Positions 17,250 through 43,640 of a DNA stretch of 58,534 nucleotides are shown here, in pieces. The translations under genes and the position numbers were made by a program. The number at the start of each line of letters is the position of its first letter. Positions within the stretch are counted from its first letter, which is position 1. Source of the stretch: Psammoneis japonica (Eukaryota); contig QPGO01000153.1 of assembly GCA_008632985.1 (NCBI GenBank), positions 124,001 through 182,534 on the forward strand, in the 5' to 3' direction. Below the pieces are notes generated by a model. It had not been told where the DNA came from and ran no database searches. It saw only the letters and a list, made by a program, of their open reading frames with translations.

Positions 17250-17592
17250 ACGTCGAAACTTTATACTAGAGTAGAGCATGCAGACAGCACCCTATCAAAG
17301 CTCGAGCTTTTCAAAAGGAGATCGTACCATAGCTACCGGTACTTATCCAGACTATGCTCTAGAGTTTTGTGAAAATGACTCACTTTACATTTCTCTTGAA
17401 TCGTTTCAAATTTTTGGAATTTCGGATTGTGCCGGCGCGCGAATCTCAGATCCTTCGAAGTAGAGAAAATAACAATAAGAAACGGAACAAACGTCGTCTG
17501 TTTTATTGAAGTGCTCTTGTGAACTGGTGACAAAAGCCATCACTGTAAATAATTATTTCGCCAGACCTTCGCCGCACTTGCGATCCGACATC

Positions 17593-19551
17593 ATGAATAC
17601 TAAAGCTGTTTCGATCGACAGCTTGACTGACGAAGGCAAAGTAGATCCCGAGAAAGGGAGCCTGATCAGTCCACAGATTGCTGCAGGTTCCACTCACGAT
17701 ATCTCCCAAGATGCAGAAGAAGAACCTCCTGTTGTTGGACAAGATCTCAAGAACAAGGCAGTTCTCTCGGGCACGGAAGAAGATTCCATTTTCAAGAGCG
17801 AAAGCACTGTGGTCGCTAAAGAGGAAGACATCGAATGGGTGGAGCTGACCGAGGATGTTTTCAGTCTGATTTTTACGTGTCACTACCACAGCGCTGGTTT
17901 GGCCTTTTGCTTGTTCGCGATATCAATTCAAATGGCGATTGTAGGTTTGATACTGGCGGATCTCTTTTACCATTACGACTTTGATTATAATCCATTTAGC
18001 ATCCCTGCAGGCGTTTCCATTTCGGTGAAAGTGGCGAGTGCACTGGCGTTGCTACTGGCGGTCGCAACGCAGGACGATGTTCTGACTGCGCTTGTGTTTT
18101 TCCAACATGGATACGATCCAATGGTGCTGGAAGTCAATCCAAGCGCTACTAAATTTAAGTGGGTCTTATCAGGCACTTGTCAGCTCCTGGCAGGATCGGG
18201 GTTGCTATTGACAATCTTTATTTTGGTAATGCAAAGCAGTACTGTCGTGAATATGATGCTAAACTTTGCTGCTTTGTCCTTCATCTCGGAAATCGATGAC
18301 GTGGCTTTTGCATTGGCAAAGCGCGGCTTCATTACCGATTCGGTGGAACGACAAGTCAATGAAGTGGCAGAAATCAGAATGCGTTCCAAACGCAAATCTA
18401 AAATACCACGAAGGGTGGGGTTCTTACTGGTCTTTTCTGGCCTCATGGTGGGCTTTGGTGTACTTACGCATCAACAATATTCAGGAAGGTTCTTGTGCCA
18501 GTCGATCTATCTTCAGGTTGGTGATAGCTTCTTTCCTGCCACTGCAACCCTTTCAGGGATATATGACCAGACTGACACCATTGTCAACAACCGAGTAACC
18601 TACATCGAACGACGGTTCAAACAGAGCATGCTTGGATACTGTCGGAAAGAATTTGCCTGGACCCTTTCGGTTTGGAACGGCACAAGTGATAGAGAAAATT
18701 CGAAGCAAAACCCTTGCTCATGGGTAGCAAGATCCGAAAGGACAGAATCATTTGATGTCATACCAACCGCCGATTCGGAGTGGCTTATTTCTCAAACGTC
18801 GGGCTCGAGAGTCATGCCATTGCAGACTTTCAACATGTTTTGTGGGGACTGTCATGGCCACGATTTCGAATGTGGCCGCCTTGGCGAGTGTATCAACAAC
18901 GAGTGTGACTGTTATGACACCTCCTTCGGCCCTACTTGTGCCCAAAGTTATCCGTGCGAAAGGCTCGCTGTGGATCTAAACTCATTGCCCTTTCCCAGCT
19001 TTACTGGGTTCGGTGTCGTACCTGATAGGTTCGAATTGCTACGAGAGGAAAATGGTGACTTGGTCACGGTATACGAAAAGCCAGTGTATGTGTTCAATCA
19101 CGACGGCGAATACTGGACTGTTATTTTGTTTTCGGGTAGACGATGGATAGTCACATTTTCCTACCTCTTTGACGCATTGATTAACGACTTCACATTCCCA
19201 CAAAATGCTACTCGCACTCAAGTCATTGATTTCCTCTGGAACTACCATGGATTCTTTACGCCTGTATTTGGCGCTTTTGTAAGCGATCCTATGGATGCTG
19301 GTACTCCTTCTGATAAGTCAAGTCCTGTTGGATTGCAGTGGTACAGAACCAGAACAAAATCTGGTTTGTCCATTTTGTTCAATGAGCGCGATTCAACCCA
19401 ATCCGTTGGGACTCAACTCCTATGTTCCGTTTGTGATGACCGATCCAATGCTTGTGGAATAGCTGGAACTGGCGGGAACTGTACCGCTGATGGTGTCTGC
19501 AAATGCGAGGTGGGTTTCAATGGAACCATGTGCGAGCTTAAGTCTGTATAG
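17593..19551 (+). CDS. Multi-pass membrane protein with C-terminal EGF-like domains, paralog 2 (tandem duplicate)
   Basis: Colinear with 15265-17249 (EWVELTED, LNFAALSFISEIDDVAF, FLCQSI, VTVYEKPV, SDPMD.GTP.DK.SPVGL.W). Confidence 0.85.
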   Translation: MNTKAVSIDSLTDEGKVDPEKGSLISPQIAAGSTHDISQDAEEEPPVVGQDLKNKAVLSGTEEDSIFKSESTVVAKEEDIEWVELTEDVFSLIFTCHYHSAGLAFCLFAISIQMAIVGLILADLFYHYDFDYNPFSIPAGVSISVKVASALALLLAVATQDDVLTALVFFQHGYDPMVLEVNPSATKFKWVLSGTCQLLAGSGLLLTIFILVMQSSTVVNMMLNFAALSFISEIDDVAFALAKRGFITDSVERQVNEVAEIRMRSKRKSKIPRRVGFLLVFSGLMVGFGVLTHQQYSGRFLCQSIYLQVGDSFFPATATLSGIYDQTDTIVNNRVTYIERRFKQSMLGYCRKEFAWTLSVWNGTSDRENSKQNPCSWVARSERTESFDVIPTADSEWLISQTSGSRVMPLQTFNMFCGDCHGHDFECGRLGECINNECDCYDTSFGPTCAQSYPCERLAVDLNSLPFPSFTGFGVVPDRFELLREENGDLVTVYEKPVYVFNHDGEYWTVILFSGRRWIVTFSYLFDALINDFTFPQNATRTQVIDFLWNYHGFFTPVFGAFVSDPMDAGTPSDKSSPVGLQWYRTRTKSGLSILFNERDSTQSVGTQLLCSVCDDRSNACGIAGTGGNCTADGVCKCEVGFNGTMCELKSV

Positions 19552-19619: not shown

Positions 19620-20253
19620 ACTCCAATGCTGCTTCAGCACGCAACAACAAGCGCAGCACCAACTTTTTTCGGTTAGCTCAAATCAACCATTTCGCCTTCA
19701 ATTTGAGGCGTTCACTTCCTTTCCAGCTGGAAGGAGATGCTGAACTCAATTCAGCGATCCTAATTGAACAGCAGCATGGGATTTGTCAGAGCTGTCTGTG
19801 GCAGACACTTGATGCCGATTCACAAAATGGGTTTGTTGTTTTAGAGCAAACCAAAATGATGGCTTCAAAAAAATCCCAGGAAGCGACTGAAAAGGGTGAG
19901 AGCTCAGAGATTCATCCACTGGCAGGAGTCCATTGCATTGTCTGACAGCTCTCCTTTTTTGCACTCATTTCAAGCATTGGGATTGAAAGCAGCCAATCTG
20001 CCAACTGAAGGTTCCAAACTTTCCCTCTCCTTTTCAACAAGCTTGAGAGCTGGCTGGCCATCAACAGGAGTGCTGCTGGAGTTTCATCTGCAACCACCAA
20101 AGGTTGCCCATGCCATGACTTGTGTTGGATCCATTGACCTGTCTGGCTGGACAACAGAGAGTTCCAAGACTGCCACTCCCTCCTGCACTTGCATGATGTG
20201 CACAAGAAGACACTTGGACGGGTTCCAGTCCTAGGTGGGACTTTTTGTGACAT
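19620..20253 (-). pseudogene. Hypermutated ORF relic beginning MSQKVPPRTGTRP
   Basis: TAY/CpG-depleted; N-terminus matches the divergent relic starting at 20557. Confidence 0.45.
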
Positions 20254-20556
20254 TTGCCCCGTAGAATTCTACGTGCGAGCTCTGTAGTTCGTACTCTGGT
20301 TAATGCATATATTTATCTTCGACATAAAAAAACGGCCAAGTTTGTAGTACATCTATCCCTGTCTGTACTCGAAGTTTTGGACAATGCGCCTGCCCTACGC
20401 CATTCTTAAGACACTCGAGAATGGCGTAGAAGAAAAAAATATTAAAAGTTGTTCAATGGATAGCCCGATAATTGTACTATAAAATCATACAAAATTACGC
20501 CAAAATCACGTAGAAATGTACGTGCGCGACATACGACGCGATTCAAAAAACTATCG
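20254..20556. promoter_or_regulatory. Unmutated symmetric spacer (candidate bidirectional promoter) with a central hairpin
   Basis: 12-bp stem 20395-20406/20418-20429 at the centre; near-identical CGTAGAAwtsTACGTGCG motif at 20260-20277 and 20509-20526; TpA and CpG retained. Confidence 0.45.
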
Positions 20557-21200
20557 ATGTCACAGTTCAGTAGCACGAGGTCCCACCTAGACCTGGAACG
20601 CGTCCTTGGCCATTTCAGCAACATCAGCAGTGGCAAACTCCAGCACAACTTCAGCATTGTCAACCATGATGAAACATCTTTCATTGTCATTGACATTTAA
20701 GCAGGTTGTGTGGGCAGTGCCATGGCTGCCTGTTCTGCAACAAGCGACCATGCAGAGTCACAAGGCCTGCTTGTTGTAAGAGGGGTGTCTCAAGAAATGT
20801 GAGAGAAAATTCACAATTTTCTGCACACAAGCAGCAGCTGGTGTGTGTCCCATGTGCTGTGCATTCTCTGGCATGCAATGGGAGCTGGTGTCAAACCCCA
20901 TGCCATTTTGTTCTAAGAGCCGCCGCAGATCAGACACACAGCATGGCTGGCAGACTTGTTGCCATTTGACATGCCGAGAACAGTGGCAACATTTGAGGGC
21001 ATGCACCAGAGGCTGTTCAAGTCCACATTCACTCTAGAAAGTTCCTTGTCACACATTGTCACATGGTGTCATGCTTGCACTCTCTGCGTGCCATTTTGGG
21101 TGGCGGCATTTCGGGGTGGGGGTGAGGAGAGCTGCTGCTTTCTGTGTGCGCACACGAACACAAAACAAGTCAAAGCTTGAGCAAATTCTGCTGGTCTCTC
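20557..21200 (+). pseudogene. Hypermutated ORF relic beginning MSQ..VPPRPGTRP
   Basis: 20580-20605 is an inverted copy of 20216-20241; downstream sequence is TAY/CpG-depleted. Confidence 0.45.
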
Positions 21201-21484
21201 CTTTCCAAAGATGAGCAAAGCCTGCAACAAAGTAAAGAACAGTCAACATTCTTACGAAACAACAGGAGCCGGGTAAGTGTCACCACCAGCACCTGCCAGT
21301 GGAGACTGAGAACAAACACCACCACCAAAAGAACAAGACAGGAGGGACGGGCAGACCATTGGTTTTTTTTTCCGCAGGCTCTTGGCTGGGTTTCCTGCGA
21401 TCTGGATCGTTTCCTCTATCATCTGCAAATCTCTCATCTATTATATCTTATATCCAACAGCAATCCTTGTAGTCAGTACACACT

Positions 21485-22358: not shown

Positions 22359-24942
22359 TCATACGACAATGAATTCATCATTAGCCGTATAGTATCGTCT
22401 GCCGCCCTTGCGACGATATTTTCGTCCTTTGTTGTAGCGGCGGCGGTACCACTTGTTATTGTTTGGACGAAGCCACCATGGACCCTTTTTGGTGGGAGTG
22501 CCCTTTATTGGACGAGAGGGTCCCCAGTTGGTAGGGGAAGGCTTTAGAGGCTTTGCTGGGGGCGGTCCCCAAATCCATCGTCGCGTGGGTCGAGGAGTAG
22601 GTGGGTTGTCTGGCAATGGCGAGGCGGAGCGTTGGAAATAGAAGGGGAGTTTGAGGGTTCGCTACTTGGACGACGTTCCGATGGTGTGTTGGATGGTGTT
22701 GGACGGAACGATGCTGGGCTCACTGCTTGGGGACCCTGAAGGCTCACTGCTTTGAAGTTTCGATGGTGTGTAAGAAGGGGTGTTGGATGGCGCACTGGAC
22801 GGAACGATGCTGGGCTCAAACGAAGGAAGCGCGGTTGGGAAAGCCACAGGAGGCAGTATATAATCCCCTCGGTCGGTGACAAAGAAGGAATGCTGCTTGG
22901 ACTCACTGACGGCAAATCACTCGGGCTTGCAAATGGAAGAGAGCTAGGGGTGATCGAAGGAGAGGTTGAAGGTTGCATAGTGCCTGCTTGCGCTATTGCG
23001 GCGTTAACGGCAGCCTCTCCGTCAATGAGGCCGTAACCACTGTCAAAGTCAAAGCCAGCAACATCCATATTGATTGCAGTGTTCTCCAATATAGAGTATA
23101 TCTGAGCTGGTGTCAACGTTGGGTTGACCTGAAGTAACAGAATAGCCACTGCTGCTGCGTTTGGCGCGGCAGCCGAGGTTCCTAGGGCAAGCAACATTAT
23201 GCGTCGTTAGAAAAAGAAGCTACATGATTTAGAAAAAGATAGAACACAGACCAACTTACCGGCAAAGTAGTACCCAAAGCCATTTGGTGAATAGGAAGTG
23301 AAGCTTCCAAAGAAAGTGTTGATACAACGATCGGGTGCTACAAAGCGGGGTTGATTTCTAATTTCATCTGTCGGCTTTCTTGATCCATCTCGCTCAAATA
23401 GAACTGGCGTACCACCGCGACTAGAAAACGACTCCAAGAGTGGAGGGTCTATCCCAAAGGCTGGTGTTTCTTGAAAAAAGGATGCACCGACAGCAGCAGT
23501 GAACCTCTGGTTCTTATGCCCGAAAGAAGTTGACGATTGAGTGTCGAAATCAACAATGTCGACGATGTTGCTAAAACCAATCCATTTCATTCGGGGAGAA
23601 GTGGCGACGGTGGTGCATAAAGAAATTCAAGTTCCACTTCAATGTTGGTGAAGAAAAGCATTGGTCACAAAAAGAAGGACGGCTGGTCATTACCGGTTTC
23701 AATTGAAATGTCTTGGGTTCTCAAAGTTCCGTCGGAATTGTAAATGCGGACATCCATGTCTAGGGATGCACCAGGGGAGCCACTTACAGAGAAGAACGGA
23801 TCTTCCCACTGAAAGCTGATTCGCGATGTACCAGGACGGATCTCGACTCTTTGGCGAGTCACGCCAGGACTGAATTCATGGATTTCGCATCCTTTGGCAT
23901 CAGAAACTCCGGAGCCAGAAAAGTTCCTTCCCAGGAAATTTTCCAGCGTTCCCGACAGATGAAAAGTAAGGGACACCTCTTCCCTCTGCCACATCATTTG
24001 CCGACTGTGCAATTACTCCGTCCTGGAAAAATGGCTCAAGCAAGTTAACTGGCAACCATGGAGTAGAGTTGGACGGGAAAGCTGTGAAAACGAATCTCTG
24101 CGGGTGGCATGCACGTCACGTTGACAGGCCACACCAAGACTTACCTACGTCATCGACAATGACATTGCATCCAGCATTAGCCAGCGCCGTGATGCCGCTC
24201 GCAAATCGTCCGCTCCTTCAAATGCCGTATAAAACAAAATTTCTGCGCCTGGGATCAGGTCATGGACTAGTTGCGCCATGGCTCGCCCTTCATCACTCCC
24301 AAGCCTCGACAGCTCTTTGATGATTGTGACACCTGCTAGGGGCAAATCTCCAGAATCCTGATCGTCCGAAAGCCCACCTAGAGTATTGAAGCTGTCTGAT
24401 AGGATTCCAATCTTTAACCCAGACCCCGTCAAAGTGCATCTGCTTGACGCACAAGATCGATTCGAAGAGCCTGTAGTGCCTCACTCACAACCGAACCGGC
24501 CTGTTCTGACACAGAAACAGACGGACGAATAGCTCTGACCTCATCTCGAGCCTCAAACTCAGGAAATTTCTCGATTGGTAGGTATCCGCAGCATCGGTGC
24601 TTACTGCATCCGGTGACGTCGAAATCGAAGTCATCAAAAGCTGTCTTTAGGAGTTCCACAGCGCCTTCGTCGTCTGCGGCTGGTGTCACTTCCACCAATA
24701 TAGCACTCTTGTCTTTGTTCCACGAAAATGCGTCTAGTAATGGAGTTGATACGGAAGATTGGTCTGCTTCTGGCTCAACGCCCTTCGCTGACATGTATTC
24801 GTCGTAATGTTGCGAAGCATTCCGTTGGTCTGCTTTTCTTCATCTTGCGACGCTTGCACGATCCAGATGGTCTTCCCGAGAGCAAAATACCCACAATGCT
24901 CACAGCCACGAGCAATGAGCTCGAATGAACTTTGTTTCTCAT
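22359..24942 (-). CDS. Secreted subtilase (S8-like) with Ser/Pro/Thr-rich stalk and basic Trp/Tyr-rich tail; several frameshifts
   Basis: Signal peptide; KIGILSDSF, DEGRAMAQLVHD, FSSRGG, FVAPD, FAGTSAAAP (across intron 23259-23182), GFDFDSGYGLID; PSxxPS repeats. Confidence 0.75.
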
Positions 24943-25755
24943 GGCTACGAATAAAAAGCGAGGTTCGCAAGACAATTACAGTACTGCTGTTGTTGTTGTT
25001 GTTGTCCATACAAGAACTCCTTTTATGGCTTGCGTAAGATAATGGACTCCTTGAAAGGAGTATGTTGCAAAGAATTCGAAACAATGAAACGATTGTTGGG
25101 CCTCAGTAAATATTCTGATTAGTGATTAAGGAAACATTCTTTGGTTGATCCCTATGTAACTCCACGCAATGACATTTTAAACTTGATAGAATAGAAGAAA
25201 TTTGGAAAGGGGCAATGAAAATAAGTAATGGATCCATTAAGTAGGCTTAACGAAAATAGCAATAAAAAAGTACATTGTTTCGATAGTGTAGAAAGAATTA
25301 TATGATTACTATATCAAAATAAACTTTATTAATGACATATGTAAACGTACATATATGATTAGTTTTCCCGCCAAAAATGCCATGCACAATTCGAGCTTGC
25401 TTGCGTCCATTTCAGTTGGGCCGCGCGGCCGTACCGTACCGTACTGTACAGTACCGCCCGGCACCGTAGGCCCCCATGCCATGTGCTGCGCTGGTGGCAC
25501 GATTTCGAACGCACGGGCACAGCAGTCCTGCCGGCACGGTAGAGCACAAAAAAAAGAATTCGAGCATCACACTTGCCTGCAGCAGTGCCCAGTCTGTTGG
25601 TGATCTTGGTGATCGCACAGTGCGCATTCGTGCAGTGTGCTTGCTCCTTGTCAACGAATGTGTTGAGAGATGTCAGCTGTCCACATTCCCCCATTAAAAG
25701 CGCTGTGCTGCTGTTCGAGATAAATTTGCACACTTCGCACATTTTTTTTTAATTT

Positions 25756-26260
25756 TCAGCACCTTGAAAACTTTCTGCACATTCTGACAAATTCGTGGCA
25801 CCGCTTGTGCTCAGAACCCAACAGAACAACAACATGACCATGGCACAAATGCCGTTTGTTGAGCGCAATGGAGGTGGCACATCGTCAAAGTCTCTTCGCA
25901 AGATCATCTCAGCTGTCATGCTCGACAAACTTTCGAAGAGAGTTGAGCACCATGCACCCCACATTGCGCTCAACGAATGGCACTTGTGCCATTTTCATGA
26001 TTGCACTTGCACGGTGAGTGCAAATGCTCACATCAGTTTTTTCCACAAATGATGCATGATTGAGCAAAACCATGGCTCTCATTCAACGCTCTTTCAACAC
26101 ACACATGTGAAAAACGAGGGCATTTGCTGACTTGTGAAGGTGCTCAGTTTTTAAAAAAGGTGCTGGATTTTTAAATCTTTTTAAAAGGTGCTAAAAATGA
26201 ACAAAGGTGCCAACGTTTTGGGTGTTTTTTTAAAAGGTGCTGGGTTTTCAAGGGTGCTGA
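25756..26260. mobile_element. MITE-like element with terminal inverted repeats
   Basis: TCAGCACCTTGAAAAC (25756-25771) is inverted at GTTTTCAAGGGTGCTGA (26244-26260, one extra base); several subterminal AAGGTGCT repeats at 26137-26258; no clear TSD. Confidence 0.5.
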
Positions 26261-27024
26261 GAGCAGCACGTCATCTGTTCGTGCGCGGTGGCCCCACGAA
26301 ACCGGAGTGCTGGCATGCGTGGGCAACGCCACTTTTTGGGTTTGGTGGTGTGGCACAAAAAATGGATTTCCACATGGATTTGTGTGCACAGCTTTGAACA
26401 AACAAAAAACAGCTGTGTCTGCTGACCACAATGGGCGTTCAAGGCAACGGCGGTGTGGTCCTCCCCACAGCATCTCCCGTCTGCAACATGTTTCTGCTCT
26501 TGACCTGAACAGCACTGGTTGGTTGTGAAAATTTTCACATTTGTGCTGATTGTTTCCACAATTGCTCAATTTCTGCAAATGCCAATTTTGTGAGTCTTTT
26601 GATGATTTTTAACAAATTGACAATCAAATTTTTTGTGCTCATTTGAAGTCCCTCTCTGCTGAGGACAATGACTGTTGCACCCCTGAAAAAGATGATGGCT
26701 TGCAATGCTTTGATGCACTGGACCAAGTGGGGATGGAAGAAGCTCAACTGTTGCAGCCACCATGCGTTCATAAAACCAATGCTGCCAAGAAGCTTCATCC
26801 AGTTGAGGAAGAGTTGGCTGTGATGATGAAGAAGCAACATCTCTCTCGCAGTTTGTGCAAGGCCTTTCTGTCTTGGGCCAGACATGCCAAGGAGAGTGAC
26901 TGCGAGTGCAAGCATTTGTCCTTCTTTGCTGCCTTGCAAGATGCACAAAAGCCAGGTGTGCTCATTGTGTGGTGCCAAATCCCATCCACTCTGCTGTGCA
27001 TGTGGCACCCGAATTCTCCCCAAA

Positions 27025-30000
27025 GCACATCTGGGACACCAACAACCTGGGTGTCGCACCTGCTGTCAAGATTTTGTGAATCAAAACCAGGCAAATTCTT
27101 TGTTTGGTCCAAGATTGTGCCAATTTGCCAAATCTGCATTTGTGAAATGTTCAAAAACAAATGTCTTCATTCCTGAAGTTGACAATTTCTCTGCCACATG
27201 TGCAAGTCTGCTGTGTGGATTGTGTTCATGTCAAATCTTGAATGAAGCATCTCCCACTTTCCTGGTCCCAAAACTCTGCAGCCACACATCAAGTTAGATT
27301 CTTCTTGCCTCCAATTTTTTTCTCCCTGTCCATGCCATTCTTTGCTTTTGTGCAATGCCCCCTGTGCATTGCTCTTCTTCATTTGCTCCCATCTTGCGGC
27401 CCTGCTCTTCACCAAGTGATTGCTCTGCAAAGCAAGATTGATGTTTGCTTTCAATGCATTCCTTCCATCACATTCTTGTCTTGATGTTTCTCCAGCATGC
27501 TTCATTGGCAATGCAGTCCAATGGTCTTGTTGTTCATCCTTGGTGCAAACATTCTGGGTTTCTTTCCAAGCACAGTCTCAGTCAGCATGTTGCCCACCAA
27601 CTGCCTCCCTTCCATTGGTCCAACCAAGTCTTTCAGTTCTCTGCATTGCAAACAATGTTGCTCTGACTTGGAAATCCAGTTGCAGTGTCACCTTTCTCAT
27701 CACTGCACTGCTTCCACTGTTTTCCCTTTGCCAGCAACACAGCTGTGCTCAAGAACAGAATCATCCTCCCTGTCTGGTCAGACATTCGTTTCTTTGCTTC
27801 CCTGGGATGCTGCCTCTGTTGCCTCACTTGGGTCCAACACCAACAGACCCAAATGTCCTCACTGCCAAGTTCTCTTTTCCAACATTGCCCTGCAACTCCA
27901 GAAGTGTGCACCCTGCTGTGAGAAGGAGGAAGTGTCCTTTGATGCTCTGCTGCTGTCTCAAATGCATCAATTCATTTTCCCCTCAAGACAATGACACATT
28001 TGGTGACAGTGACTGCAACTCAATGTTTGGTTTTGCCAAGGATGAACCCCAGCCTCTCCTTCCTGAAGTCTGCTTGAATCTGGATCCAGCTCCTCCCGTG
28101 CAACCCGACAATGCTTGTCCTGCCAGCTCCTGCACCTCCAGTGGAAACAGTCTGTGCCCCCCCCCTGTCAGATGCTCTGGTTGCTTGCACGCCACTGCCA
28201 ATGCAGCTGCCACCAATGCAGCCACAGTGAATGCCCGCTGATTTGTCTTGTTTGCTGATGACAGTGTGTCTGCCCTTGGAGAGGACAGTCCTGTGAAAGA
28301 AGAGGGGGTGGTCAATTCAGCCTTGAACAAACAATCATTGTGGGGTTATGAGCAAATCTTAAAACCACATGAATCTGCAGTTGTGTCAGAAAAGAAGATG
28401 GAATGGGGTGCACACAATTGCAAGCAAACAACTCTGGGGCCAGGAAAACAATGGAAAGCTGCACAAATCTGTGGTTGCATGTGTGGATCACTTGTGATGG
28501 AACACAATTCAAAATGGTGGAAGTTTTTGAAAAATTCAAATGTTGAGTTAGACACACATGCACTCAAAAATGATGCATGCACTCAAAAATGACACAAACA
28601 CCAGGTTGAATCAATGTGGGAGAAGTGAGCAGTGGCAAAATGGAGAAGAACACTTGCAAAATGCACTCATTTTGTGACTTCTTGTGTCATGAACCAGACG
28701 CAATGTGGCAAACAGTGCAACACAAGAGCCGCCAGTTGGAACGCGAAAGAAGATGGGAGATGGAGGAAACAGTTGCCACAAGAGTGAAAATGCAAGATGG
28801 TGGAGCACAATGTCAAGCAGCAAGTTGGGCAGAAGGGGGCAGGACAAAGACCAACAGTTGTGCCAACAAGTCAGAGTTGGCCACTTTGGCATGCTTTGCA
28901 GTTGCCGCGAGTCCTGCAGCAGTGGCGCGTTGTTGTTCAATGTGCAAACAAACAAGTGCAGGGAATTGAGCCAATTCCAGTTGGTGGGCAGGGATTCAAG
29001 TCCTGTTGTGACTCCTGCGGAAAGATGTCATGTGATGGATTGAGCTCCAGCAGTTGGCCAGAAATTGACAGGGTCCATGTTGACAAAGGTGGTCAATGAA
29101 AGTGTGTGGCTGCATCCCAAGTTCACAGTCTTTGATGGAGAACTGGAAGTGGGAGGAGCACGCATGAAAATGTTTCTGCGGGAGTCAAGGAGCATGGCAT
29201 CTGCACCAGAGGCATTCTGGGATGCATGCAAAGAGGTCTTCAGGAAAAATGCCAACTGCTGAAGGAACAGTGCAGGACAACACAAGGAGGAGGATGACAG
29301 GTGAGCAACACAGTGCATGTGTTTGACAGTCATGGACAGGATTGTTCAGCAGGTCTCAAGTTTGAGAGCTCTGTTGTTTTCATCAGTGCAGTTGCAGCTT
29401 TGGAGGGGTTGATGGTTGAGTGCAATGATTTGATCAAGGGCAGGGCTGACAAAGACATGTGTGCATGGTTCTTGGAAACAGCAGTGCTGACTGTGGTGGG
29501 CCAAGTTCAGTTTGGCAGAAGCACAATGGATTTGCTCCAAGAGCAGCTCACCATGTCATTGGAGAACTTTGCTCTGCTGGCACACTCAAGCTGCTGTGAC
29601 AAGGTGGGTGACATGGCAGAAAAATTGAAGAACAGTGACATTGCAAGGCAATGAAAGCTGACACAGCAGAAGATGCTGCAGCTGCAAAACACACGGCAAT
29701 GGCTGTGGGGGGATTGGCTGAGAGGAACCAAGGGTGAAACAACAAGGAGGGGTCAAGAAGCACAATGAGCTGCACAATTGGGAGATGAAAGACTGAGAGA
29801 ACAACAAAGGATTTGGTGCATGGCTCAGGAATGGAGACAAGAGAAGGCAAGTTTGTCCAAGGAGGCAGAGAAGAAATGCAAGAGAGAAGACAAGAGAAAG
29901 GAGAGAGAGGACAGATGTGCCACGCCGATGGGAGAGGACCTGCCCTTTTGCCAGTGGCTGCCAGCAGTGGCACAGAAGTGATTGCAGCCATGGCAACAAG

Positions 30001-30445
30001 CCAAATGGTTGTGTGAACATAAGTTGCAGCAAACAACAAAATCCAGAACACAGCAAAAACAAAGATGCAAGCTGCAAGGCATTTGCAAGTCAAGAACAAA
30101 CAGCAGTTGCAACATTTGCATTTTTTAAAAACAACAATGCAAAGAGACAAAATGCAGAAGGACACCACAGGCAAGGATGGTGGGTTGCAAGTGGCAGGAG
30201 ATGTGATGAAGGAACAAGGAACAGCAAATATAAAAGGGCTGGCTGAGATTAAAATCATGGGCAAGAATGTTCATGCTTCAAAGTGGGGTGTGATTTAGAA
30301 TCAAGAAGCTTTTGAACTTGGTTGGTTCTGAACTGATGTGTTCAAAGAAAGATTTGGCTCACAAGTCCACAACAATCTGGGATTGCAGTCAAGAAACACC
30401 CAGATATGACAGGTGGTCAGACCCAGATTGTTGGTGCCCCAGATG
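27025..30445 (+). repeat. Copy A of a dispersed transposon segment
   Basis: Colinear with 44573-45830 and 47750-49803, e.g. GTGTGTCTGCCCTTGGAGAGGACAGTC and CAACAATCTGGGATTGCAGTCAAGAAA are shared. Confidence 0.85.
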
Positions 30446-30599
30446 CCAAGTGCACCAATTTTCCTTTCTGCACCATGTTGGGAGGGTCTTCCACAATTTC
30501 CAGGTTCTCCAGCCTTGCTCGGAAGCAAGCAGAGCACGCATGTCCTCAAATCTTCCCTGGCTGAACTTGGCAATGGCTGCCCTTCTGGGTCACACTTTG

Positions 30600-31620
30600 T
30601 TTGCCTTGTCATGTTGTTTGATGACTCCACTCTTTGTGACAACATGGGTCATCTGCACAAGCACAACCTGTTCTTGCAACTTGGGCAGTTTTGAGCAGCA
30701 GTTGGTGTTGTCACAGTCACTCCCTTTGGTTGACACTGGGCACAGTGCTGCCATGCCCAAAGACCAGCAAAATGAGCAAGCTGCAACAGGAGACATGTGT
30801 TCAATGTCAAGTTCCACCACAGCACACTGCAGGAGAAATTTGCTGAGTTGCTTCACCTTTCAAAGCAGCAAAAGACTGGTTTCCCCATTGCAGCCCCTCT
30901 CCAGGTTTTGTCCATCTTCACTTTCATCTGTGCCTGAGGACAATTGGCAACGCAAAAGGTCACAATGAAATGGCTTGTCACTGCAACTCCCATCCCAGCA
31001 ACACATCTTGGATGAATTGGGGCTGTGACACACCACAGTGCTTTGGCGATGACCCCATGTTCAGCTGCAACATGTGGTGAAACAAGACAATGTCCAGGGG
31101 ACATCATGGGCTGCAACAACAGCTGTGGAGGAAAGGCAAAATGGCAAAGCAACTGCAGCTCACAAACAGTGCTGGGACATTTCACAGCACTTTGCTTGTC
31201 CCATTTTTGGGATGTGCCTCATGGCAGAGGAAGGCATGGCAAGTTTGGCATGCTCCCATGGGAGCTGTTGCATGCCTTGCACTTGGGCCTTTGAAAATCT
31301 CCACTTCATGCCTTCTTCAACCTTTGCCAAGTTCCAGAAACCATGATGTCATGGTGTCGTGACCGTTTTGGTGATGGGGAGTGCACAATGGACAATTGTT
31401 CTTCTGTTGCCTTCAAAAAGCTCCCCAAGGTTTTTGACAAGGCTGAGTTCAAGAAACATTTCAGAGTTGTCACACATGCACCCAGAAGGCAAAGTGAGCG
31501 GAAGATGCCAAGAACTCCATTCAAGAATGGAGTCACCAACCAAACTCATCCATCAGGCCAAGAGCATCCCGATCTTTTGATGGCGACACTTGCTGCAATT
31601 AACCTGGAGACACAGGAGAG
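30600..31620 (+). pseudogene. Plavaka/CACTA(EnSpm)-like transposase relic
   Basis: Degenerate motifs GDIMGCNNSCG, FWDVPHG, PWELLHALHLGL, RQSERKMPRTPFKNG..GQEHPDLL, broken by frameshifts. Confidence 0.6.
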
Positions 31621-34600
31621 TCACTTTTCCCACCTCATGTTCATGTCTTTGGGATTGGATGTGGCATTGTCTCTCTCATCAAACAAGGAAAGCTTTCACA
31701 CTTGGCTTCAGAAATGCACCCTCAAGCACGTCAAATTGTTCCAATTTGTTGTTTGCCCATTCCAAGAGTGCAATTCTTGATCCAGATTTTGCATGTCCAA
31801 GCTCCACAGTTTTCTTCATTTTCTCTTTTGCACTCATCAGTGTGGCAATGCCAACAATTTTTTTGGCAGTTTCTGTGAAGCTCTTCTTCTGAGGATGCTT
31901 TTGAAACAATCCACTAAAAACACAAGTCATTGGCAAGATTGTCTTGACCTTGATGTGGTGAATTGCCACCATGAGGACCTCATGGCAAGGGAATCTAAGA
32001 AGCATCTTCTGGATGTGCTGCCCACACCAGAGCACAAGGCACTGGCATCTCCATCAACATGTCATGGATGCACAGACCCTGTCACTGGATTCAAACCATC
32101 ACACAAACCCATCATGACAGCCACTTGAAATGCAAAAGTGGTGCAGTCTTTAAAGTGTGGAGACAATCAGCTGAATGCTTCATTGCATCCATTTGTTCCT
32201 GGACATTCTTGAGATGACCATGCAGGACAAAATGAAGCCTTTCCCATTGATCTTGTTGACTTTCACTTTGGATGCAATGCTCTGGTTCAGCTGATGATGA
32301 ACATGTCATTCAAAGATGTCATGCAAACTTCCACTCACATCCATGGAAACATGGCAGGAGTTTGCATGACTGGGTCACATGGCAAATTGGGATGAAAATG
32401 CAATGAGCTGCTTGGTTGCAGCTGGGCAACCTCAGAGAATCAAAACAATGGAACAGAAATCCATCATGTGCACCATTCAGTTGCTTTGGAGCTTCACACC
32501 AACCCAAGATTCTCTCTTGAACTTTTTTTGCAGGGGATGAAATGGAGTCTGAAATTTGAGTTGTTGAGGCTGCACAGATGTTGTCCATGGCATTTGTTTT
32601 TCCATCTGTGAGGTTGCCACTTGACCAACTTCAAGACAGTTTTAGAGGACATCACACTCACTTTGTCATCATTCCACTGAGAATTGACTGGTGTGACATG
32701 ACCCTTGACCCTTGCATTGATGGAGGAATGTTTGGACACTGAAAATTTGGATGAGTGCTGGTGACTGTTGACAAGTGTGCAACAGTGGGGCAACTTCAAG
32801 TCAACTGTCACAAAACTGCACATGTCCAAGGCTTTTTGTTCACCATTTCCAATGAAAAGGATCCAACAGAGATCAAATGTTCTGTGCTGTCATCAGGAAG
32901 ATCAACCAACAGCAAGTTGCACTTTGTGAATGCTTTTCTGAAATCTGTCTTGTGTTGTGATGAATCTGTGAGATGGACATGTCCATGAAAAATTCTTGAA
33001 ATGGCAAAGCAGCAGTTGTGGCTTGTCTCCATTGCAGTTGTCAACAGATGCATCATCAATGAAAATCTCAGCTTTTTCTTCCCTGCACCACTCTTCTTCT
33101 CCAACAACGTTTGCCTCTTTGACAATGTTCTTGGCCAGAGATCCCACCTCTTTCACTGCACTCTCAGCCAGATTCCCAACAACGTCATTGCCCAGCAGAG
33201 CAACAAGATTGCCAGCCTGACAGAGGATCCCAGGTTGGCAGCCAGCACTGCAGCAGCTTGGGCTGCAGAGCCTGGATGTCCCTGAGGGCTCATCCTGGTG
33301 CCTTGCCTTGAAGAAAGTTGAGCTTGAGCTTTGCGAGCCCCACCTCTGTGGCGCGGTTGGCAGCACTGCAGGCTTCACCACCTCCACCTTGTTTTGGGTG
33401 CTCCTTCTTTTTGGCAGCATGCTTGAAACACAACGAATGGCAAAGGCAGTTGTGAGGGTGTCAATGCAGCATCAAACAGTGAGAGCATCAAGCAGATTGG
33501 GCAGAGCAAAGTCCCAGAACAATTGAAAGAAGATGAAGTGGTGTGCCAACAAGAACATGTCAACATGATGAAAAATTAAATTAAATCTGATTCAAACAGT
33601 TTTTTTGCATGCACATGTTAGTCAGAGGGCAGTGGAGCAGATCAACATTGTCAAATTGGTGCAGAACATCAATGACTTGATGATTCACTCAAGCAATTTC
33701 AAATCATTCAAACCCAGCAAAGATGCTGAGCATGGAATTTAAAACAACAATGGCACTTTAAAAGAGACACCAACAACTGGAGTCACCAGACAGACAGACA
33801 GGCTCAACGTTGTTGTCACAAAAACACAAATCATCATTGCCTCACAAGACACAAAATGCAACACACAGGGCACATCCAACATCCTGACAATGACAGCAGT
33901 GGGGAGAAGGCAATGGCAGAGCCAAGGGGAAGGATGCCAATGTGGGACAAAAGGCAAGAGCAAGCAGCTGAGTGGCAAACAATGCATGGAGCTCAGGCAA
34001 ACAATGTGCAAATGACTGATGCTTTTGCAGGTCTTTTGACACATGGACATCTTGACACACAAAAGCAGAGGAGCTGGAAGAAAAGATGGTGCTGCTTGGG
34101 TGGCACAAAGGTGAGCAGAAACAGCATTTGCACCAAGCCAATTCAAAACAAAACACACAGAGAACTCCAATCTGTCCCACACTGTTTTCTCTTCTTTTGC
34201 AGGCAATGCTTTGGCAAGCCAAAAGCCAAGGAATGATGCAGGAAACAAGAGAAAAGCAGCAACATGGAACAAGATGATTGTGGAGAGCCACAGCAATTGC
34301 AAGGGACAACATCATGTGCTGACAGCAAATCAAGCAAAGAAGAGAGAGCTGATGGAATGCACAAAAGAACAAAGGAGGAAAGAGCAGGAAAGAGATGACA
34401 AAAGCAGATTCAGTGTGAAAAATCAAAAGACAACATGTGAGAATCAGATTGCAATCAGGAGCACACAGCCAATGTGCATGCACACATTGACAAGACATGC
34501 AAACATGAACACATTGTTGTTGCAAGACATGAAAAATGCTGGAAATTTGTTGCACCAACTGTGCGGTTGCTCAGGACAAACAGTTGCAAGTCATGAGCTT

Positions 34601-35818
34601 CATTCATTGTCATTTCCTGCTTTGCATGTCACATTGGTTGTGGACAGCAGAAACCAAACAATGTCAAAAAAAGCACCAATGTTCACTTGTCAAGAAGATC
34701 ATGTGCATCATGAGACAAATTTGATTCAAGTGCCATGCCCCACTTTGCACAGAAGAACAATTGTGGAAAGCCCTTTTGTCACAATTGACCAGCACTCATC
34801 AAGAAGACAGGACACTTGCCCAGCACAGACCAACTCTGAACAATGTTCCATGTGCCTTCTTTTCCACAAAACAACCTGAGAGACTTCAGGACAAAGAGGA
34901 GTGAGCCCACTCCATCCAATCCTTGGGATGATGACAAGCCAGAAGAAGCACACCCAAGAACCAAGCACTCTCCTCTCAAACAAGTGCAAGTTGCTCACTT
35001 GGCACAATGCAGGAAAAGTCTCATGCCTTTGATGTGTTTGGGGAGTTGTCATCTTGCCATCACTTCAACCCATGTGTCTTTTCCTGCAGGTGCTTGCATC
35101 ATGTGTCCCTGCCATTGCTGCTTGATTTTCTGAGTTCAATGGGGGCATGTGCTTGATTGCCCAGACAAGGAGACAATGAAGCAGCTCAAGCAGGTGCTCC
35201 AATTCTTCAGGAGAAAGAGAAGCAAGCCTGTTCCAACCCTTGTGGAGAGCAAGAAGCACTCAAGCCAGCACTCCTTTCAAAATGCAAGTCAACAACTTGG
35301 CGCACTTGTGTCTTGCATTTTGCTGCATTTGGGGTGTCGTCATCTCAAAGTCATCTCAATCTAATGTTTTGCCTTTGTTTGCAGCACTCTCTTTGTTGAT
35401 CAGTGCAGCTCCACTCTGTGGGTTGAGAGATGCTGCAACACAGCTTTGACCATGTTTGATGATGTTTGTTGTGAAGAAAAAAGGGATTTTTGTGAACATT
35501 GCTCTCTTTGTGGGGTTTGTCACTTAGATTGCTGTGGGTTCACTGCTGCATTTTGGTGGAACAAAGATCACCAAACATGATTTTTTTCTGTGACAGCCAC
35601 AGATCCTCATTGTGGAGATCCAGGCAGGATTGGCGCACAACCACCATTTGTTCAATGCATTGTTTGGCAGAGTGAAGATTGCTCGATGACATTTTTTGTG
35701 GATCGGCTGGCGCTCTGGATTGTTGTGGAGATGCAGGTGAGATTGGCATGCACAACAACCCCAGCTCCTCTGACAATGGCAGAAAAATGCAACTGCCCCC
35801 CAACAGCACATGATTGAT

Positions 35819-36023
35819 GCTGTCGAGTTTGTCCAGAGAATCACCCCTCTGTCGCTGTGCGATGGACACAGAAAGTTCGTTGTGCGGGGTTTTTGCTGTT
35901 GAGTTTGTTGGGAGAATCACCCCTGCTGCACAGAAAGCTCATTGTGGGGTTGCTGTTGAGTTTGTCAGGAGCATTGCCCCTGTTGCAATGCAGTGGACAA
36001 AGAAAGTTCATTGTGGGGTTGCT
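35819..36023 (+). repeat. Three degenerate tandem units (~55-75 bp; GCTGTTGAGTTTG...AGAAAG.TCATTGTGGGGTT)
   Basis: Directly visible. Confidence 0.7.
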
Positions 36024-36579
36024 TGGGTGGTGTGCCACACGGGTGCCCTTGGTGTTCCCATTGGCGTGCTTGGAGCAGGATTGTTTGTAGAGATTGTTGA
36101 GGAGGAAAACAAGGAGAACAGCATGAGCTGGAGCAAGAGTGCAGCTTGTGCTGGTGTTCCAAAGAAAGGGTTGGCATGTTCTTTGAGAACTCGTGATGCC
36201 ACAACTTTGCCGCCGACGGCATTGGAATCCAAGGCAGCCACGATTTTTTTTAGCTTTCCACGACCCATGCTCTCATTTTTGCAGCCATCACCGTGCATGT
36301 CTGCCAGATGATGCAGGGCCACAAACAAGACTTTCTTGCAGTCAAGTGGTTTGCCATTGTCACTCTTGCCTTGTTGAGCACTTGTTGGCTGTTCTGCCCT
36401 TTCATGTGAAAGTCGCAATGACAATCCCCGCAATTGCTCGAACTTGATACGTGCTCCCGCCGCGCGCAGCGACTTCGCTGATGAGTTATTCTGATTTTCT
36501 GATGCTGCGCATTGAGCATGCTGCCAACCACGAAAAGAGAAAGAGCAGAGCGACAAAAGTGTACCTTGTAACAACAAAC

Positions 36580-40414: not shown

Positions 40415-42217
40415 ATGCACTACACCAGTTTAGTCCTTACAATTCTTGCAAGCAGATGTTTGGCGGCAGATGCTTTTTCATCGAGTGCAAAGCGCAGTCA
40501 CAAAATACAATCCGTACGACCAAAACGAGGGGTATGTTTTTCTTCTTCTGAAAACAAGGAGTGGACGTCTGATTTTGAGGATTTCTACAATGAAAATGAC
40601 AATGACAATGATTTTGAGCTACCCGACTTTTCCTTGAATAGCAATGAGGAGGACGACAAGCCCCAGTCAACCAAGGAGCAGTCGGACTTGTTGGAATCTC
40701 TGGCAAAAGCGGTATCCGCCAACACCCGACAAGACTTGGCCGGGATTCAACAACGACAGTTTGGCTTGGGTGAAGATATCATCCTGGTAGACTTTGCTGG
40801 TAGCATGGGTTTTGATGAAGTAACAGATTGGGAGTACTATCGACAAGACGAGGACACGGGAGATCGTCAAGTGGTTGAGCCTCCGCCGTTGGACCCCTCA
40901 AAACCAAAGCGAACAAGGGAACGCGTTGGATCAGTGGTATGTATCGCACTTGCGACTGAACCCTGAATATATTATGTAAGACGTGACATAGGTCTTCTCA
41001 CACAAAGTTTTCCCTTGCTTTGTTGAACTGCAGGTTCGAATTTTTCGTGGAGAATTCATTGGAACACTTGCCGGAGCGCTCCGATCTCAGGGACTCGATT
41101 CACGTGTTCTGGTCAAGGAGTTTTCCGGTGACCTTGCAGTGGATTTGGCAAGAGCAGAACTCGCCTCTGTAGCAAAGCTGCAGTCGTCGATATGCAATGA
41201 CGAGGATTGGAGTGGCTCAGCATTGGGGAGACGATCCTCCACGTCGACCCAACAACGGCAAGATAATACGCGGGTATGTACTTTGGTACAGAAACTACAA
41301 GAGGAAGCGCCCTACTTGGGTATTTTGGGTCAGATAAATATTGCAGAGTTGCAGGAAAATGATGATTTGGATGCCAACGAGTGGTATCGTGCCTTGAGCG
41401 TGGCTCCACCAAAACAGAATTCAATTTGGGTTGTTTACGAATATGCGGGCTTGTCGACCACTCAAATGTATTGCCAACCAGCATTGATGCGAAGAGCCAG
41501 TATGCCTCCAAAACGAGGCTTTTTTGGTACTGTGGTAGAGCCACCTGCCTTGCCAAAGTGGAGCGAGAGGTCAAATTATGTTGTCAAGGGCGTGATGAAG
41601 GGTGCGTTAGAGGCACTAGCTACACTTCACGAAGCGGGTATTGTTCACAAGAGCATTGGACGAACGTCTCTCTTACTTAGCAGCACTGCCATGGATAAAA
41701 CTGAAGCTGCTTCACCGTTTGCCACCTTAACATCCATGCTACGCATGAAACTTGCAGACTTTGGCTTTTCTCAGCCCATTCAAGAATCCATCTTGGACGA
41801 GGACTTACGTCGCCGTGCAAGAGGCTTTGGGTTGTCTCTGGTGAACAGACAAGATGCGGAAGCGCTAACAGACTACGCCCAGGCGGAAGACTTGCATGCA
41901 TTGGGATTTGTCTTTTTAGGGTTGTTGCTAACGTCCTTAGCGGAACCACCCTCTGCAGAATACACCATGCCCAGCGTGGATGACGATGCGCTGAAGAGAC
42001 AACTGGGCGACATCTTCAACAATGAAATGTACGAATTTCGATCTTATGTCAAAGCCGAGGGTGATTTGTGGGCTAACGTTGTGGATCTTCTAGATCAACA
42101 TGATGGAGCTGGTTGGCAGCTTCTTCAATCCATGTGTACGGCACGCGAAGATGCGGCGAAACAAAAAATTGTAAAAGTGCCCGGGAGTTGCTGTCGAGTC
42201 CATTCTTTACCAAATAG
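40415..42217 (+). CDS. Plastid-targeted protein-kinase-like protein, probable pseudokinase
   Basis: ADA-FSS presequence; intron 40937-41033; VLVKEF, WVVYEY, VHKSIG (no HRD Asp), LADFG, EDLHALG; C-terminal frameshift gives SARELLSSPFF* at 42217. Confidence 0.8.
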
Positions 42218-42360
42218 TTGACAGGGCAAGTAAACTCGTGTACAATAGAGATGTTCTTGTTCATGTACCATGGATTTCTTAACTATCCACTAAACATGCA
42301 TGCGTCCACTTACGGTATCGACTTCGCTGACTCCATCCCAACGTCTCGTTACAATCTTGA

Positions 42361-42660
42361 TCAGGTCCATTGGCTCGCGAGAGGTCCCACTGCTAGACTC
42401 GGAATCAGACCCCAGACCTGGACCTGAAGTACCTACAAGAGACCGAGATAGTGCCAGGCGGGTGGGATGTAGAAGATAGCACCGGAAAAAAGTGAACCCG
42501 GCATCCACCGCCGAGTTCTGGTCGGCGGGATAGCCACGCATTCGAAACTTGAGACTGGCCAAAGGAGCTTGAACGACGAACCTAACGAAGTTTGGCTCGC
42601 ACCCAACGCAACGGCGAGCAAGAAAATTTGACGATCAAGCCAGACGCCTGTTGCAGCTTT
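42361..42660 (-). pseudogene. Truncated duplicate of the 3' end of the FMO gene
   Basis: Matches 51281-51610 (CVGCEPNFVRF, FRMRG, same stop context TCAGGTCCATTG) with deletions. Confidence 0.85.
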
Positions 42661-43082
42661 GCAGCTGCGATCATCCCTTGGTGCCTGGCCACGACCGTTC
42701 TTCGCCTTCGTAACTCCCATCGCTCTCGTTTTGAGTCTGATGTGTTAATCCACTCCAACTTACTTGCCATACCTTGAAAGATACTCCAGCCGCTAGTCCA
42801 TTCCCGAGCGTGGGGCGGGGGGATATTGTACTCGTTGTCTGTCGTTGCCGCATGATCTGTGCACCACATTTTGCATAGCAATCCACTTAATTCCGTGAAA
42901 CAAAGAGCTGATGATTGAATTCAAAAGACTTCTTATCACTTTAGAGTAGTTCGTAGGCTCCTATCGATATTGGAACTAAATGATCATTCTCATTTTCGTC
43001 AGATTCAAAGTAAACCTGTTACCAAAACTGTTGCTTAGAAACAGACGATCACGTGTGGGACAAAGAATTGCGACAACTGAAA

Positions 43083-43640
43083 TCAGACGCACGAGTATCC
43101 CGTGTTTTCGTCTCCGACACAAACCTGCCCTTCAGGACATCCCGCGTTGAAATCCTTAAAGCATTGGCATGTGCCTTTGAAGCACTTAGTTGTACTACAG
43201 TCAAAGGGAATATTAGGATCACACGGTGCACCAACAGGCAAACCACAAAAGGGCGGTAAATCGGGCAAAAACTGCAGCAAGGTACAGGTGCGGCCACTCG
43301 TGCAGCCGACGTTGGTGTTTAGGTTGCATCGGCAGCTTCCGGGCGCACCAGGAAGGATCTCTCCAAAAAAGCAATTTTTGCTTTCGCAAACAGCATCATC
43401 GCGGCACTCTGAACCAACTGGCAAGCCTTGTGCTGGAGGAGGTGAGGGAGCAAGACTGGTTATTTGAAGGATCCTCCTCTCCCAGTATTGGCTTTCTTCA
43501 TCGTCCAACAAAGCGGATTCAAATGTAAGCGAGTTTTTGGAAAGGCTTTCGCTTTTATCCCTGTCGGCATGGCTGACAACTCCATCAGAGGAAACTAAAA
43601 GACAGGTTGCAGCCAGTGCCCTTGCAGATGACAATCTCAT
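43083..43640 (-). CDS. Small secreted Cys-rich protein, single-module paralog of 53821-55956
   Basis: Signal peptide, WERRILQ (RxL-type) site, then a near-copy of the last Cys modules of the large gene; no hydrophobic tail. Confidence 0.8.
   Translation of the reverse strand: MRLSSARALAATCLLVSSDGVVSHADRDKSESLSKNSLTFESALLDDEESQYWERRILQITSLAPSPPPAQGLPVGSECRDDAVCESKNCFFGEILPGAPGSCRCNLNTNVGCTSGRTCTLLQFLPDLPPFCGLPVGAPCDPNIPFDCSTTKCFKGTCQCFKDFNAGCPEGQVCVGDENTGYSCV

Follow-up and report, generated by a model that had tools for sequence, protein, structure and literature searches.

The locus analyzed here raises the question of how nearly every TpA and most CpG dinucleotides could have been removed from blocks of a diatom genome that lie directly beside genes of normal composition. 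These blocks, referred to below as islands, are found in a stretch of 58,534 nt from Psammoneis japonica (contig QPGO01000153.1, positions 124,001 to 182,534; hereafter the window, in whose coordinates all positions are given). Genes are densely packed in the window and contain few introns, and its uroporphyrinogen decarboxylase (URO-D) most resembles those of Bacillariophyta. An initial annotation (the original prediction) had attributed the islands to a repeat-targeted process resembling repeat-induced point mutation (RIP), whereby A-to-G hypermutation at TAY (Y, pyrimidine; R, purine; N, any base) was superimposed on CpG decay. We found that TpA and CpG in the islands have been replaced by TpG and CpA on both strands, with a strong dependence on sequence context, within sharp borders, and over a lasting period; the direction of change was read from one element. 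Our favored explanation, which we hold to be reasonably likely, is that old, silenced repeat and mobile DNA was mutated in place by CpG and TpA transitions, the TpA step being due to adenine deamination directed by a mark on the target.

Composition and borders of the islands

Observed/expected (o/e) ratios of dinucleotides were profiled across the window in 1-kb windows, and the island edges were refined at the 200-bp scale. Between 26 and 36 kb and between 44 and 51 kb, the 1-kb windows had TpA o/e values of 0.00-0.10, CpG values of 0.00-0.36, and mean TG/CA values of 1.71-2.05, compared to 0.36-0.73 for TpA and 0.8-1.3 for CpG in the host windows. The pooled island set (26001-36200 plus 44001-51000; 17,200 nt) contained 57 TA, 145 CG, 1941 TG, and 1937 CA (o/e 0.05, 0.15, 1.82, and 1.81), and the host comparison set (35,838 nt) contained 1397 TA, 1888 CG, 2654 TG, and 2623 CA (o/e 0.56, 0.95, 1.18, and 1.19). 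Both the sliding-window and the pooled counts corroborate the predicted near-absence of TAC and TAT and the excess of TG/CA in the islands, alongside normal TA and CG in the flanking genes. The predicted CpG decay was likewise confirmed, by the pooled CG ratio and by the conversion of 11 of 12 CG sites in a degraded element end described below.

The G+C content is 0.47 in both the islands and the host DNA. Pyrimidine-purine (YR) steps total 237 per kb in the islands vs. 239 per kb in the host; TA plus CG falls from 92 per kb in the host to 12 per kb in the islands, and TG plus CA rises from 147 to 225 per kb. The conserved YR total, together with the loss of TA and CG and the gain of TG and CA, fits single transitions from CG and TA to TG or CA. 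Among the A-containing steps the loss is specific to TpA, the others staying near host values (AA o/e 1.25 in the islands vs. 1.18 in the host; AG 1.00 vs. 0.93), and the GpC o/e of 1.23 in the islands, compared to 1.02 in the host, fits a TAC>TGC change.

Island 1 (25600-36400) was delimited by the dinucleotide profiles and by read-derived contigs at single-copy depth, and island 2 (43950-51050), which is homologous in part to island 1, by the dinucleotide profiles. Three small islands hold up at the 200-bp scale. One lies upstream of the URO-D gene at 8560-9600 (4 TA, o/e 0.06; 19 CG, o/e 0.30), and the other two are the left half (19780-20216; 1 TA and 2 CG in 437 nt) and the right half (20606-21230; 4 TA and 9 CG in 625 nt) of a block that had been predicted as a single island at 19.6-21.2 kb; its depletion stands, but its continuity does not, as an unmutated insertion at 20217-20604 interrupts it. 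The transition at the island edges takes 200 bp or less. At island 1, the loss of TA begins at about 25600 and that of CG at about 26000-26400, and both stop at about 36400. Only at left edges does TA loss extend past CG loss, by 200-800 bp. Up to about 26000-26400 at the left edge of island 1, CG is still at the host level, with 18 CG in the 200 nt from 25400. An early idea from the 1-kb windows, that TA and CG are lost at separate sites, was ruled out, since both losses coincide at the 200-bp scale. Possible remnants of element termini occur on both sides of island 1: at its left edge a palindromic stretch of about 150 nt (25840-25992), and near its right edge short tandem repeats of about 70 and about 112 nt (35527-36023).

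Copies of island sequence were sought by a self-comparison in purine/pyrimidine (RY) code and by a comparison in which every YR step was treated as equivalent. Part of island 1 (27027-30445, forward strand) is alignable to island 2 (44574-49803, forward strand) in two collinear blocks, 27027-28295 with 44574-45825 and 28339-30445 with 47760-49803, between which island 2 carries an extra ~1.9 kb. The blocks are 70-73% identical, and 86% identical in RY space. Within the window, neither comparison detected homology beyond these two blocks and the element end described below.

The island sequence was checked against k-mer contigs assembled from a public run, which may be from the same sample as the assembly. 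This run contained 85% of the sampled words of 26001-36000, and the read-derived contigs differed from the island pieces by 2-7 letters per 0.8-1.3 kb, at a word depth of 58-70 vs. 59 in the flanking genes. No RNA run was listed as containing the island. A contig of 7,765 nt spans from position 35635 inside island 1 to position 43392 in the host genes, and one of 1,116 nt (24809-25920) leads from host DNA into the stretch in which TA begins to be lost. Confirmation of the sequence by reads, called for with the original prediction, is thus provided by contigs at single-copy depth that bridge an island edge. The reproduction of the islands by reads excludes an assembly or consensus artifact; because the run may be the assembly's own sample, it does not amount to an independent isolate.

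Pfam scans detected no transposon or viral domain in the 34 island open reading frames (ORFs) of at least 120 aa (E up to 1) or in the 199 ORFs of 55-119 aa (E up to 0.01), and thus no transposase, reverse transcriptase, integrase, or capsid among 233 island ORFs. The designation of these tracts as transposon islands was therefore unsupported, the sole evidence of a transposable element (TE) being one degraded end of an element with terminal inverted repeats (TIRs). Both strands of the islands together contain 72 TAA, 23 TAG, and 796 TGA stops, and, among codon-type triplets, 3 TAC and 16 TAT vs. 1200 TGC and 1019 TGT. Since TA is gone, TAA and TAG stops are all but missing and TAY codons do not remain, and long, Tyr-free, Cys-rich ORFs arise as a by-product. 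In agreement with the original prediction, the ORFs at 27420-28241 and 48791-49621 encode no Tyr and have 26 and 23 Cys. No deaminase was found among the 14 host ORFs of the window scanned for domains.

Context, direction, and persistence of the changes

For the bookkeeping of sequence context, the host tetranucleotide density (mostly coding) was used as a proxy ancestor, on the assumption that the ancestral repeats were host-like. The loss of TA is graded by the base 3' of A in the order TAC > TAT > TAG >> TAA. A two-factor product fit to NTAN, with the host density as ancestor, gave a per-strand survival of A in T-A-N of 0.93 before A, 0.31 before G, 0.13 before T, and 0.02 before C, and this graded fit was favored over uniform loss (likelihood ratio 128, p 1e-27). 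Compared with the expectation from host density, TTAA is kept (22 seen vs. 26.4 expected), TTAG/CTAA is kept in part (17 vs. 47.0), and CTAG is lost (2 vs. 31.7), while neither GTAC (52.3 expected) nor ATAC/GTAT (103.7 expected) was seen at all. The predicted survival of TpA as YTAR describes 41 of the 57 remaining TA steps, but the loss of CTAG speaks against a YTAR rule. Similarly, a pyrimidine 3' of A is favored, as anticipated for A>G at TAY, but the rule is graded, with TAG depleted as well, and does not oppose TAY to YTAR. A second, A>G-type process acting at TA on both strands besides CpG decay, the core of the original prediction, is upheld by the 3'-neighbor gradient and the tetranucleotide bookkeeping as well as by the polarized element and the scarcity of TA/TG and TA/CA differences presented below.

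The product classes were compared with two models. YTGY plus RCAR was observed at 74.4 per kb, with 74.9 per kb expected for A>G in TAY plus a 50:50 split of CG and 64.9 per kb under a context-free TA model; the corresponding values for YCAY plus RTGR were 46.8 observed, 46.5, and 56.5 per kb. The ratio of the product classes was 1280:805 in the islands vs. 1528:1228 in the host (chi-square 17.0, p 3.7e-5). In the two-copy island alignment, 137 concordant sites belonged to the predicted product class vs. 62 to the other, and all 8 sites with TA in one copy and a different doublet in the other showed TG or CA. The survival of CpG varied with the 5' base (G 0.62, A 0.42, C 0.37, T 0.24), a milder context effect with a mild preference for loss after T.

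The direction of change was obtained from the insertion at 20217-20604, an intact, unmutated element of 388 bp that resembles a miniature inverted-repeat transposable element (MITE). It has TIRs of about 25 nt (GACG[G/C]GTTCCAG..CTAGGTGGGAC) and the target-site duplication CTTG at 20213-20216 and 20605-20608, and contains 32 TA (o/e 1.0) and 25 CG (o/e 1.4), with exact borders amid a fully depleted small island. At its left edge, island 2 contains a hypermutated copy of this element's end (44165-44292, reverse strand), homologous to 20507-20604 in the opposite orientation, with an alignment score of 124.5 vs. 70-80 for shuffled sequences and with E 3.7e-15 in the YR-equalized comparison. An RY-coded BLAST search with the 388-bp element was discarded, as it gave many chance matches with meaningless E-values. 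Over 113 aligned nt, the island copy reads TG or CA at 6 of 6 TA sites and at 11 of 12 CG sites of the intact element, and TG/CA sites are unchanged at 11 of 13. The sequence CTAGG, present in both TIRs of the intact element, is CTGGG in the island copy. With the intact element rich in TA and CG and the island copy carrying TG/CA, the change ran from TA and CG to TG/CA, a direction shown once, in this single small polarized comparison. The intact element itself seems to have been inserted into an already hypermutated island and would mark relative time. Its presence there means that the process does not spread automatically to inserted DNA, or is now inactive, or that the insertion is very young.

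The two strands are affected equally, with 1941 TG vs. 1937 CA. The changes do not form patches, since runs tests gave z values of -0.84 and -1.47 and the block overdispersion values (1.63 and 1.38) do not leave the range seen in host DNA (1.18-1.90). This equality and the lack of tracts argue against editing of RNA or cDNA. The aligned island copies differ by 111 TG-vs.-CA double differences in 3,111 aligned nt, indicating that much of the change took place after the copies had separated, in place. Single differences of the TA/TG type were found at 9 of 212 sites and of the TA/CA type at 3 of 208, compared to 11-13% for other transitions. The rarity of these differences shows that newly arising TA was also removed and that the process lasted. 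Differences of the CG/TG and CG/CA types (7-10%) are near the background, which fits a less complete loss of CpG.

Depletion did not follow the copy number. The summed word depth over 26.7-31.3 kb was 370-816 (vs. 59), equal to about 6-14 copies' worth of relatives at a likeness of at least 80%, and only 68-130 over 32.0-33.3 kb and 34.7-36.4 kb, where the depletion equals that of the multi-copy parts; these values describe the present copy number, and the past copy number may differ. Among the paralogous contigs, most differences are transitions, which run both ways (A>G 246, G>A 273, C>T 239, T>C 276), with 43-82 of each transversion. As a control, host-like duplicated fragments at 42173-43436 (forward strand), located 0.5 kb from island 2 and 72-82% alike to 51049-54552 over 300-400 nt, are undepleted (TA o/e 0.52-0.65, CG 0.77-1.01), and tandem paralogues at 15311-19548 are not depleted in TA or CG. 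The sparing of these host duplicates and paralogues indicates that neither neutrality nor mere duplication suffices for hypermutation. The repeat-targeted, RIP-like character proposed at the outset was not supported: at present copy numbers, near-single-copy parts of the islands are equally depleted, and diverged host duplications are spared.

Proposed mechanism and alternative explanations

In the favored explanation, the islands would be old, silenced repeat and mobile-element DNA that was mutated in place, as double-stranded chromosomal DNA. Two transition processes would be responsible, both restricted to these tracts, whose edges are sharp within 200 bp. The first process would be the conversion of CpG to TpG/CpA by the expected decay of methylated CpG, and methylation of the islands is accordingly predicted. 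The second would convert TpA to TpG/CpA by an A:T to G:C change at A after T, with a relative mutability by the next base of approximately TAC 52 : TAT 27 : TAG 16 : TAA 1. Because TA is self-complementary, either strand can be hit, giving TG if the top-strand A changes and CA if the bottom-strand A changes. The process would have run to saturation, also erasing newly arising TA. Adenine deamination to inosine yields pure A>G transitions, and a requirement for 5' T with T-A-C as the best context recalls the TadA/ADAT enzymes; the 5' T next to the target A, as for an agent of this type, is found in the islands. A deaminase with a TadA/ADAT-like taste for T-A-C is a candidate for the agent, and it would deaminate adenine within DNA to inosine, a chemistry also put forward for the chlorarachniophyte Bigelowiella natans (Mettrop et al., bioRxiv 10.64898/2026.01.13.699255). 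Foreign or repeated DNA would be targeted through a chromatin or methylation mark and not through sequence pairing; such a mark fits better than homology sensing because the low-copy parts are equally affected.

Several observations weigh against this explanation. The polarized evidence consists of one 113-nt comparison, and 2 of its 6 TA sites (both CTAC, now CCAC or GCAC), as read off the alignment, changed on the strand disfavored by context. The context bookkeeping leans on host-like ancestral word frequencies, which are an assumption, and TG/CA discordance by flank class (20% for YY/RR, 30% for RY, and 21% for YR) does not separate the context-specific from the context-free model. Since the window provides only two copies, whether each of the 111 discordant doublets descends from CG or from TA cannot be told. 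The unmutated element inside an island implies either that the process is not active now or that the insertion is very recent. The enzyme, the modified base, and the methylation are all predicted from the sequence pattern. Finally, CpG loss is nearly complete here and goes unmentioned in the available text on B. natans, so the two cases may differ.

A more far-reaching version, which we consider possible but doubtful, is a diatom "adenine RIP". Here a nuclear, T-A-C-preferring deaminase descended from TadA/ADAT would be sent to methylated or silenced mobile DNA within borders sharp to 200 bp, where it would erase every TpA while methyl-CpG decay erases every CpG; it would be shared with chlorarachniophytes and represent an old genome defense of the Stramenopiles-Alveolata-Rhizaria (SAR) group.

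Among the alternatives, chemistry on the thymine side would leave the targeting the same. The T of R-T-A would be modified (to 5-hydroxymethyluracil or by oxidation of the base-J type) or wrongly excised, and then read as C. Enzymes that modify thymine, and 5-hydroxymethyluracil at TpA, exist in other protists. The attacked base of an A:T pair is indistinguishable from sequence, and the fit is identical when expressed as the 5' neighbor of T (G > A > C >> T). We nevertheless regard this route as unlikely: former TA sites change by pure transitions (6 of 6 sites in the TIR element and 8 of 8 between island copies), as deaminated adenine gives, whereas repair of abasic sites is expected to add transversions, and the literature found documents no thymine modification for diatoms.

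A true analogue of RIP also appears improbable. In such a system, duplicates would be sensed by homology, e.g., before meiosis, and a DNMT4/RID-like enzyme would act on C, with another activity responsible for A. DNMT4 is encoded in many diatoms, clusters with fungal RID, and is of no known function (PMC9998398, as far as described there), and the most repeated part of island 1 (26.7-31.3 kb, 6-14 copies' worth) is indeed hypermutated. Fungal RIP and the present case are alike in the local, transition-only degradation of repeated or mobile DNA, in long-run strand symmetry, and in a presumed role in genome defense. However, fungal RIP is described as acting on C mainly within CpA, where the change to T gives TpA (PMC2621366), whereas in the islands C>T is confined to CpG, TpA is destroyed, and CpA is a product. 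RIP depends on duplication beyond a threshold of length and identity, on a RID/DNMT4-type enzyme, and on a premeiotic stage; here, the near-single-copy parts at 32.0-33.3 and 34.7-36.4 kb (summed depth 68-130 vs. 59) are just as depleted, while the diverged host duplications (300-400 nt at 72-82% identity) and the 388-bp element, which has a relative in the window, are untouched. Strand-biased tracts were not observed either.

An intrinsic composition of the islands is very unlikely. Under this scenario, foreign DNA would always have avoided TA and CG, as do viruses that avoid UpA and CpG, or selection would have removed these steps. The host itself is low in TA (o/e 0.56). The island value of 0.05 is far beyond the Phycodnaviridae mean of 0.75 and the 0.45 of the B. 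natans insert given in the available text (bioRxiv 10.64898/2026.01.13.699255). In addition, one island piece has an intact relative with abundant TA and CG, at sites that read TG/CA in the island, the YR total is conserved, and the product classes are asymmetric.

Extrachromosomal hypermutation, by which element RNA or cDNA would be edited by an ADAR- or APOBEC-like enzyme and the mutated copies inserted, is highly improbable. Island edges coinciding with element borders would follow from it, and ADARs are known to edit A to G with a 5' U preference (bioRxiv 10.64898/2026.01.13.699255, in the text available). Such editing predicts TG without CA or the reverse, in contrast to the equal counts and the lack of patches, and the 111 discordant TG/CA doublets represent independent change after copying. 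The only identified source is a DNA (TIR) element, and no reverse transcriptase was found among the 233 island ORFs. ADARs prefer G as the 3' neighbor, which differs from the preference C > T > G >> A in the islands. A sequencing or assembly artifact, such as miscalled modified bases, is hardly credible: the signature is limited to regions likely to bear DNA modification and the platform of the assembly and run is unrecorded, but read-derived contigs reproduce the island at host depth with few differences and bridge to the host genes, and the paralogous contigs differ mainly by transitions both ways, as real diverged copies would.

Related systems and neighboring features

The closest known case is that of B. 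natans. Of the 302 nuclear mutations gained by its mutation-accumulation lines, 231 lay within two integrated viral regions. Almost all of these were A>G or T>C, every one was at TpA, and the de novo rate, measured directly, was raised ~1000-fold (Mettrop et al., bioRxiv 10.64898/2026.01.13.699255). The available text of the same report describes 124 TpA-poor, CpA+TpG-rich clusters in the genome, names integrated DNA of nucleocytoplasmic large DNA viruses (NCLDV) and virophages as the targets, and proposes an ADAT2-like enzyme as the adenine deaminase. The two systems share the conversion of TpA to TpG/CpA on both strands, the restriction to tracts of foreign or silent DNA whose neighboring genes mutate normally, and lasting TpA-poor, CpA+TpG-rich clusters, which in B. 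natans partly carry transposon-type domains. They differ in that B. natans is a rhizarian, whereas the present host is a diatom (stramenopile), and in that TpA is saturated here (o/e 0.05), compared to a Rho of 0.45 for the NCLDV insert. The graded 3'-neighbor effect observed here has no counterpart in the B. natans main text as available, in which neither flanking context nor diatoms are mentioned. In the present case, repeats and a TIR element are targeted, and a viral domain occurs in 0 of 233 ORFs, in contrast to the viral inserts of B. natans, and the rate was measured in that organism, whereas ours is a comparison of sequences.

Two further systems account for parts of the pattern. Diatom TEs are reported to be methylated through DNMT5a (PMC9998398), and methyl-CpG decay resembles the conversion of CpG to TpG/CpA in the islands (o/e 0.15; 11 of 12 sites); it cannot remove TpA and accounts for the CpG loss only. 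TadA and ADAT2-ADAT3 need a 5' T (U), as in U33-A34 of tRNA, which is a requirement shared with the islands, and the substrate loop of bacterial TadA is U-A-C, like the best context T-A-C here. Their natural substrate, in contrast, is a tRNA loop and not chromosomal DNA. DNA editing has been reported for the ADAT2 of amphioxus and trypanosome (cited in the available text of bioRxiv 10.64898/2026.01.13.699255).

Literature searches found no report of TpA loss or A-to-G hypermutation in diatoms. The original prediction that no diatom pathway of this kind had been described thus holds in these searches, and the same TpA signature has been measured in a chlorarachniophyte. In a metagenome scan, a 32-nt degenerate motif taken from the most strongly conserved block gave 0 matches. 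Of 503 1-kb windows from 59 metagenome loci near URO-D relatives (295 kb), none had both TpA and CpG low and TG/CA high while G+C was normal; these contigs are short and gene-centered and are uninformative on repeats in other diatoms. The islands show, in a second lineage and a saturated form, the kind of TpA hypermutation first reported in 2026 in B. natans, with CpG decay in addition. If the same process operates in a diatom, it is not a curiosity of one lineage. The order TAC > TAT > TAG >> TAA provides a sharper motif for testing candidate deaminases, and the unmutated young element within a mutated island is a natural time marker. Islands devoid of TAA/TAG stops and Tyr codons yield long false ORFs that gene finders may call, and repeat libraries and TE dating by ordinary substitution models would be misled in such genomes.

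Some features of the neighboring host DNA are also of note. The tandem paralogues at 15311-19548 encode proteins of 636 and 690 aa, the first with an EGF-like domain, and are 69% alike in DNA. Island 2 sits between direct, diverged duplicates (42173-43436 and 51049-54552). The left-flank fragments match the 3' parts of an FMO-like gene (51284-53134, reverse strand) and of a 735-aa ORF (53824-56028, reverse strand), and look like pseudogene pieces. The 735-aa ORF has no Pfam match and contains an internal tandem duplication of ~663 nt at 53889-55547. In run X2, which is from the same sample as run X1, the summed word depth reached ~1550 in the bin 42010-42676, compared to ~8 nearby, suggesting that a short piece of this bin is either highly repeated or common to something abundant in the X2 library.

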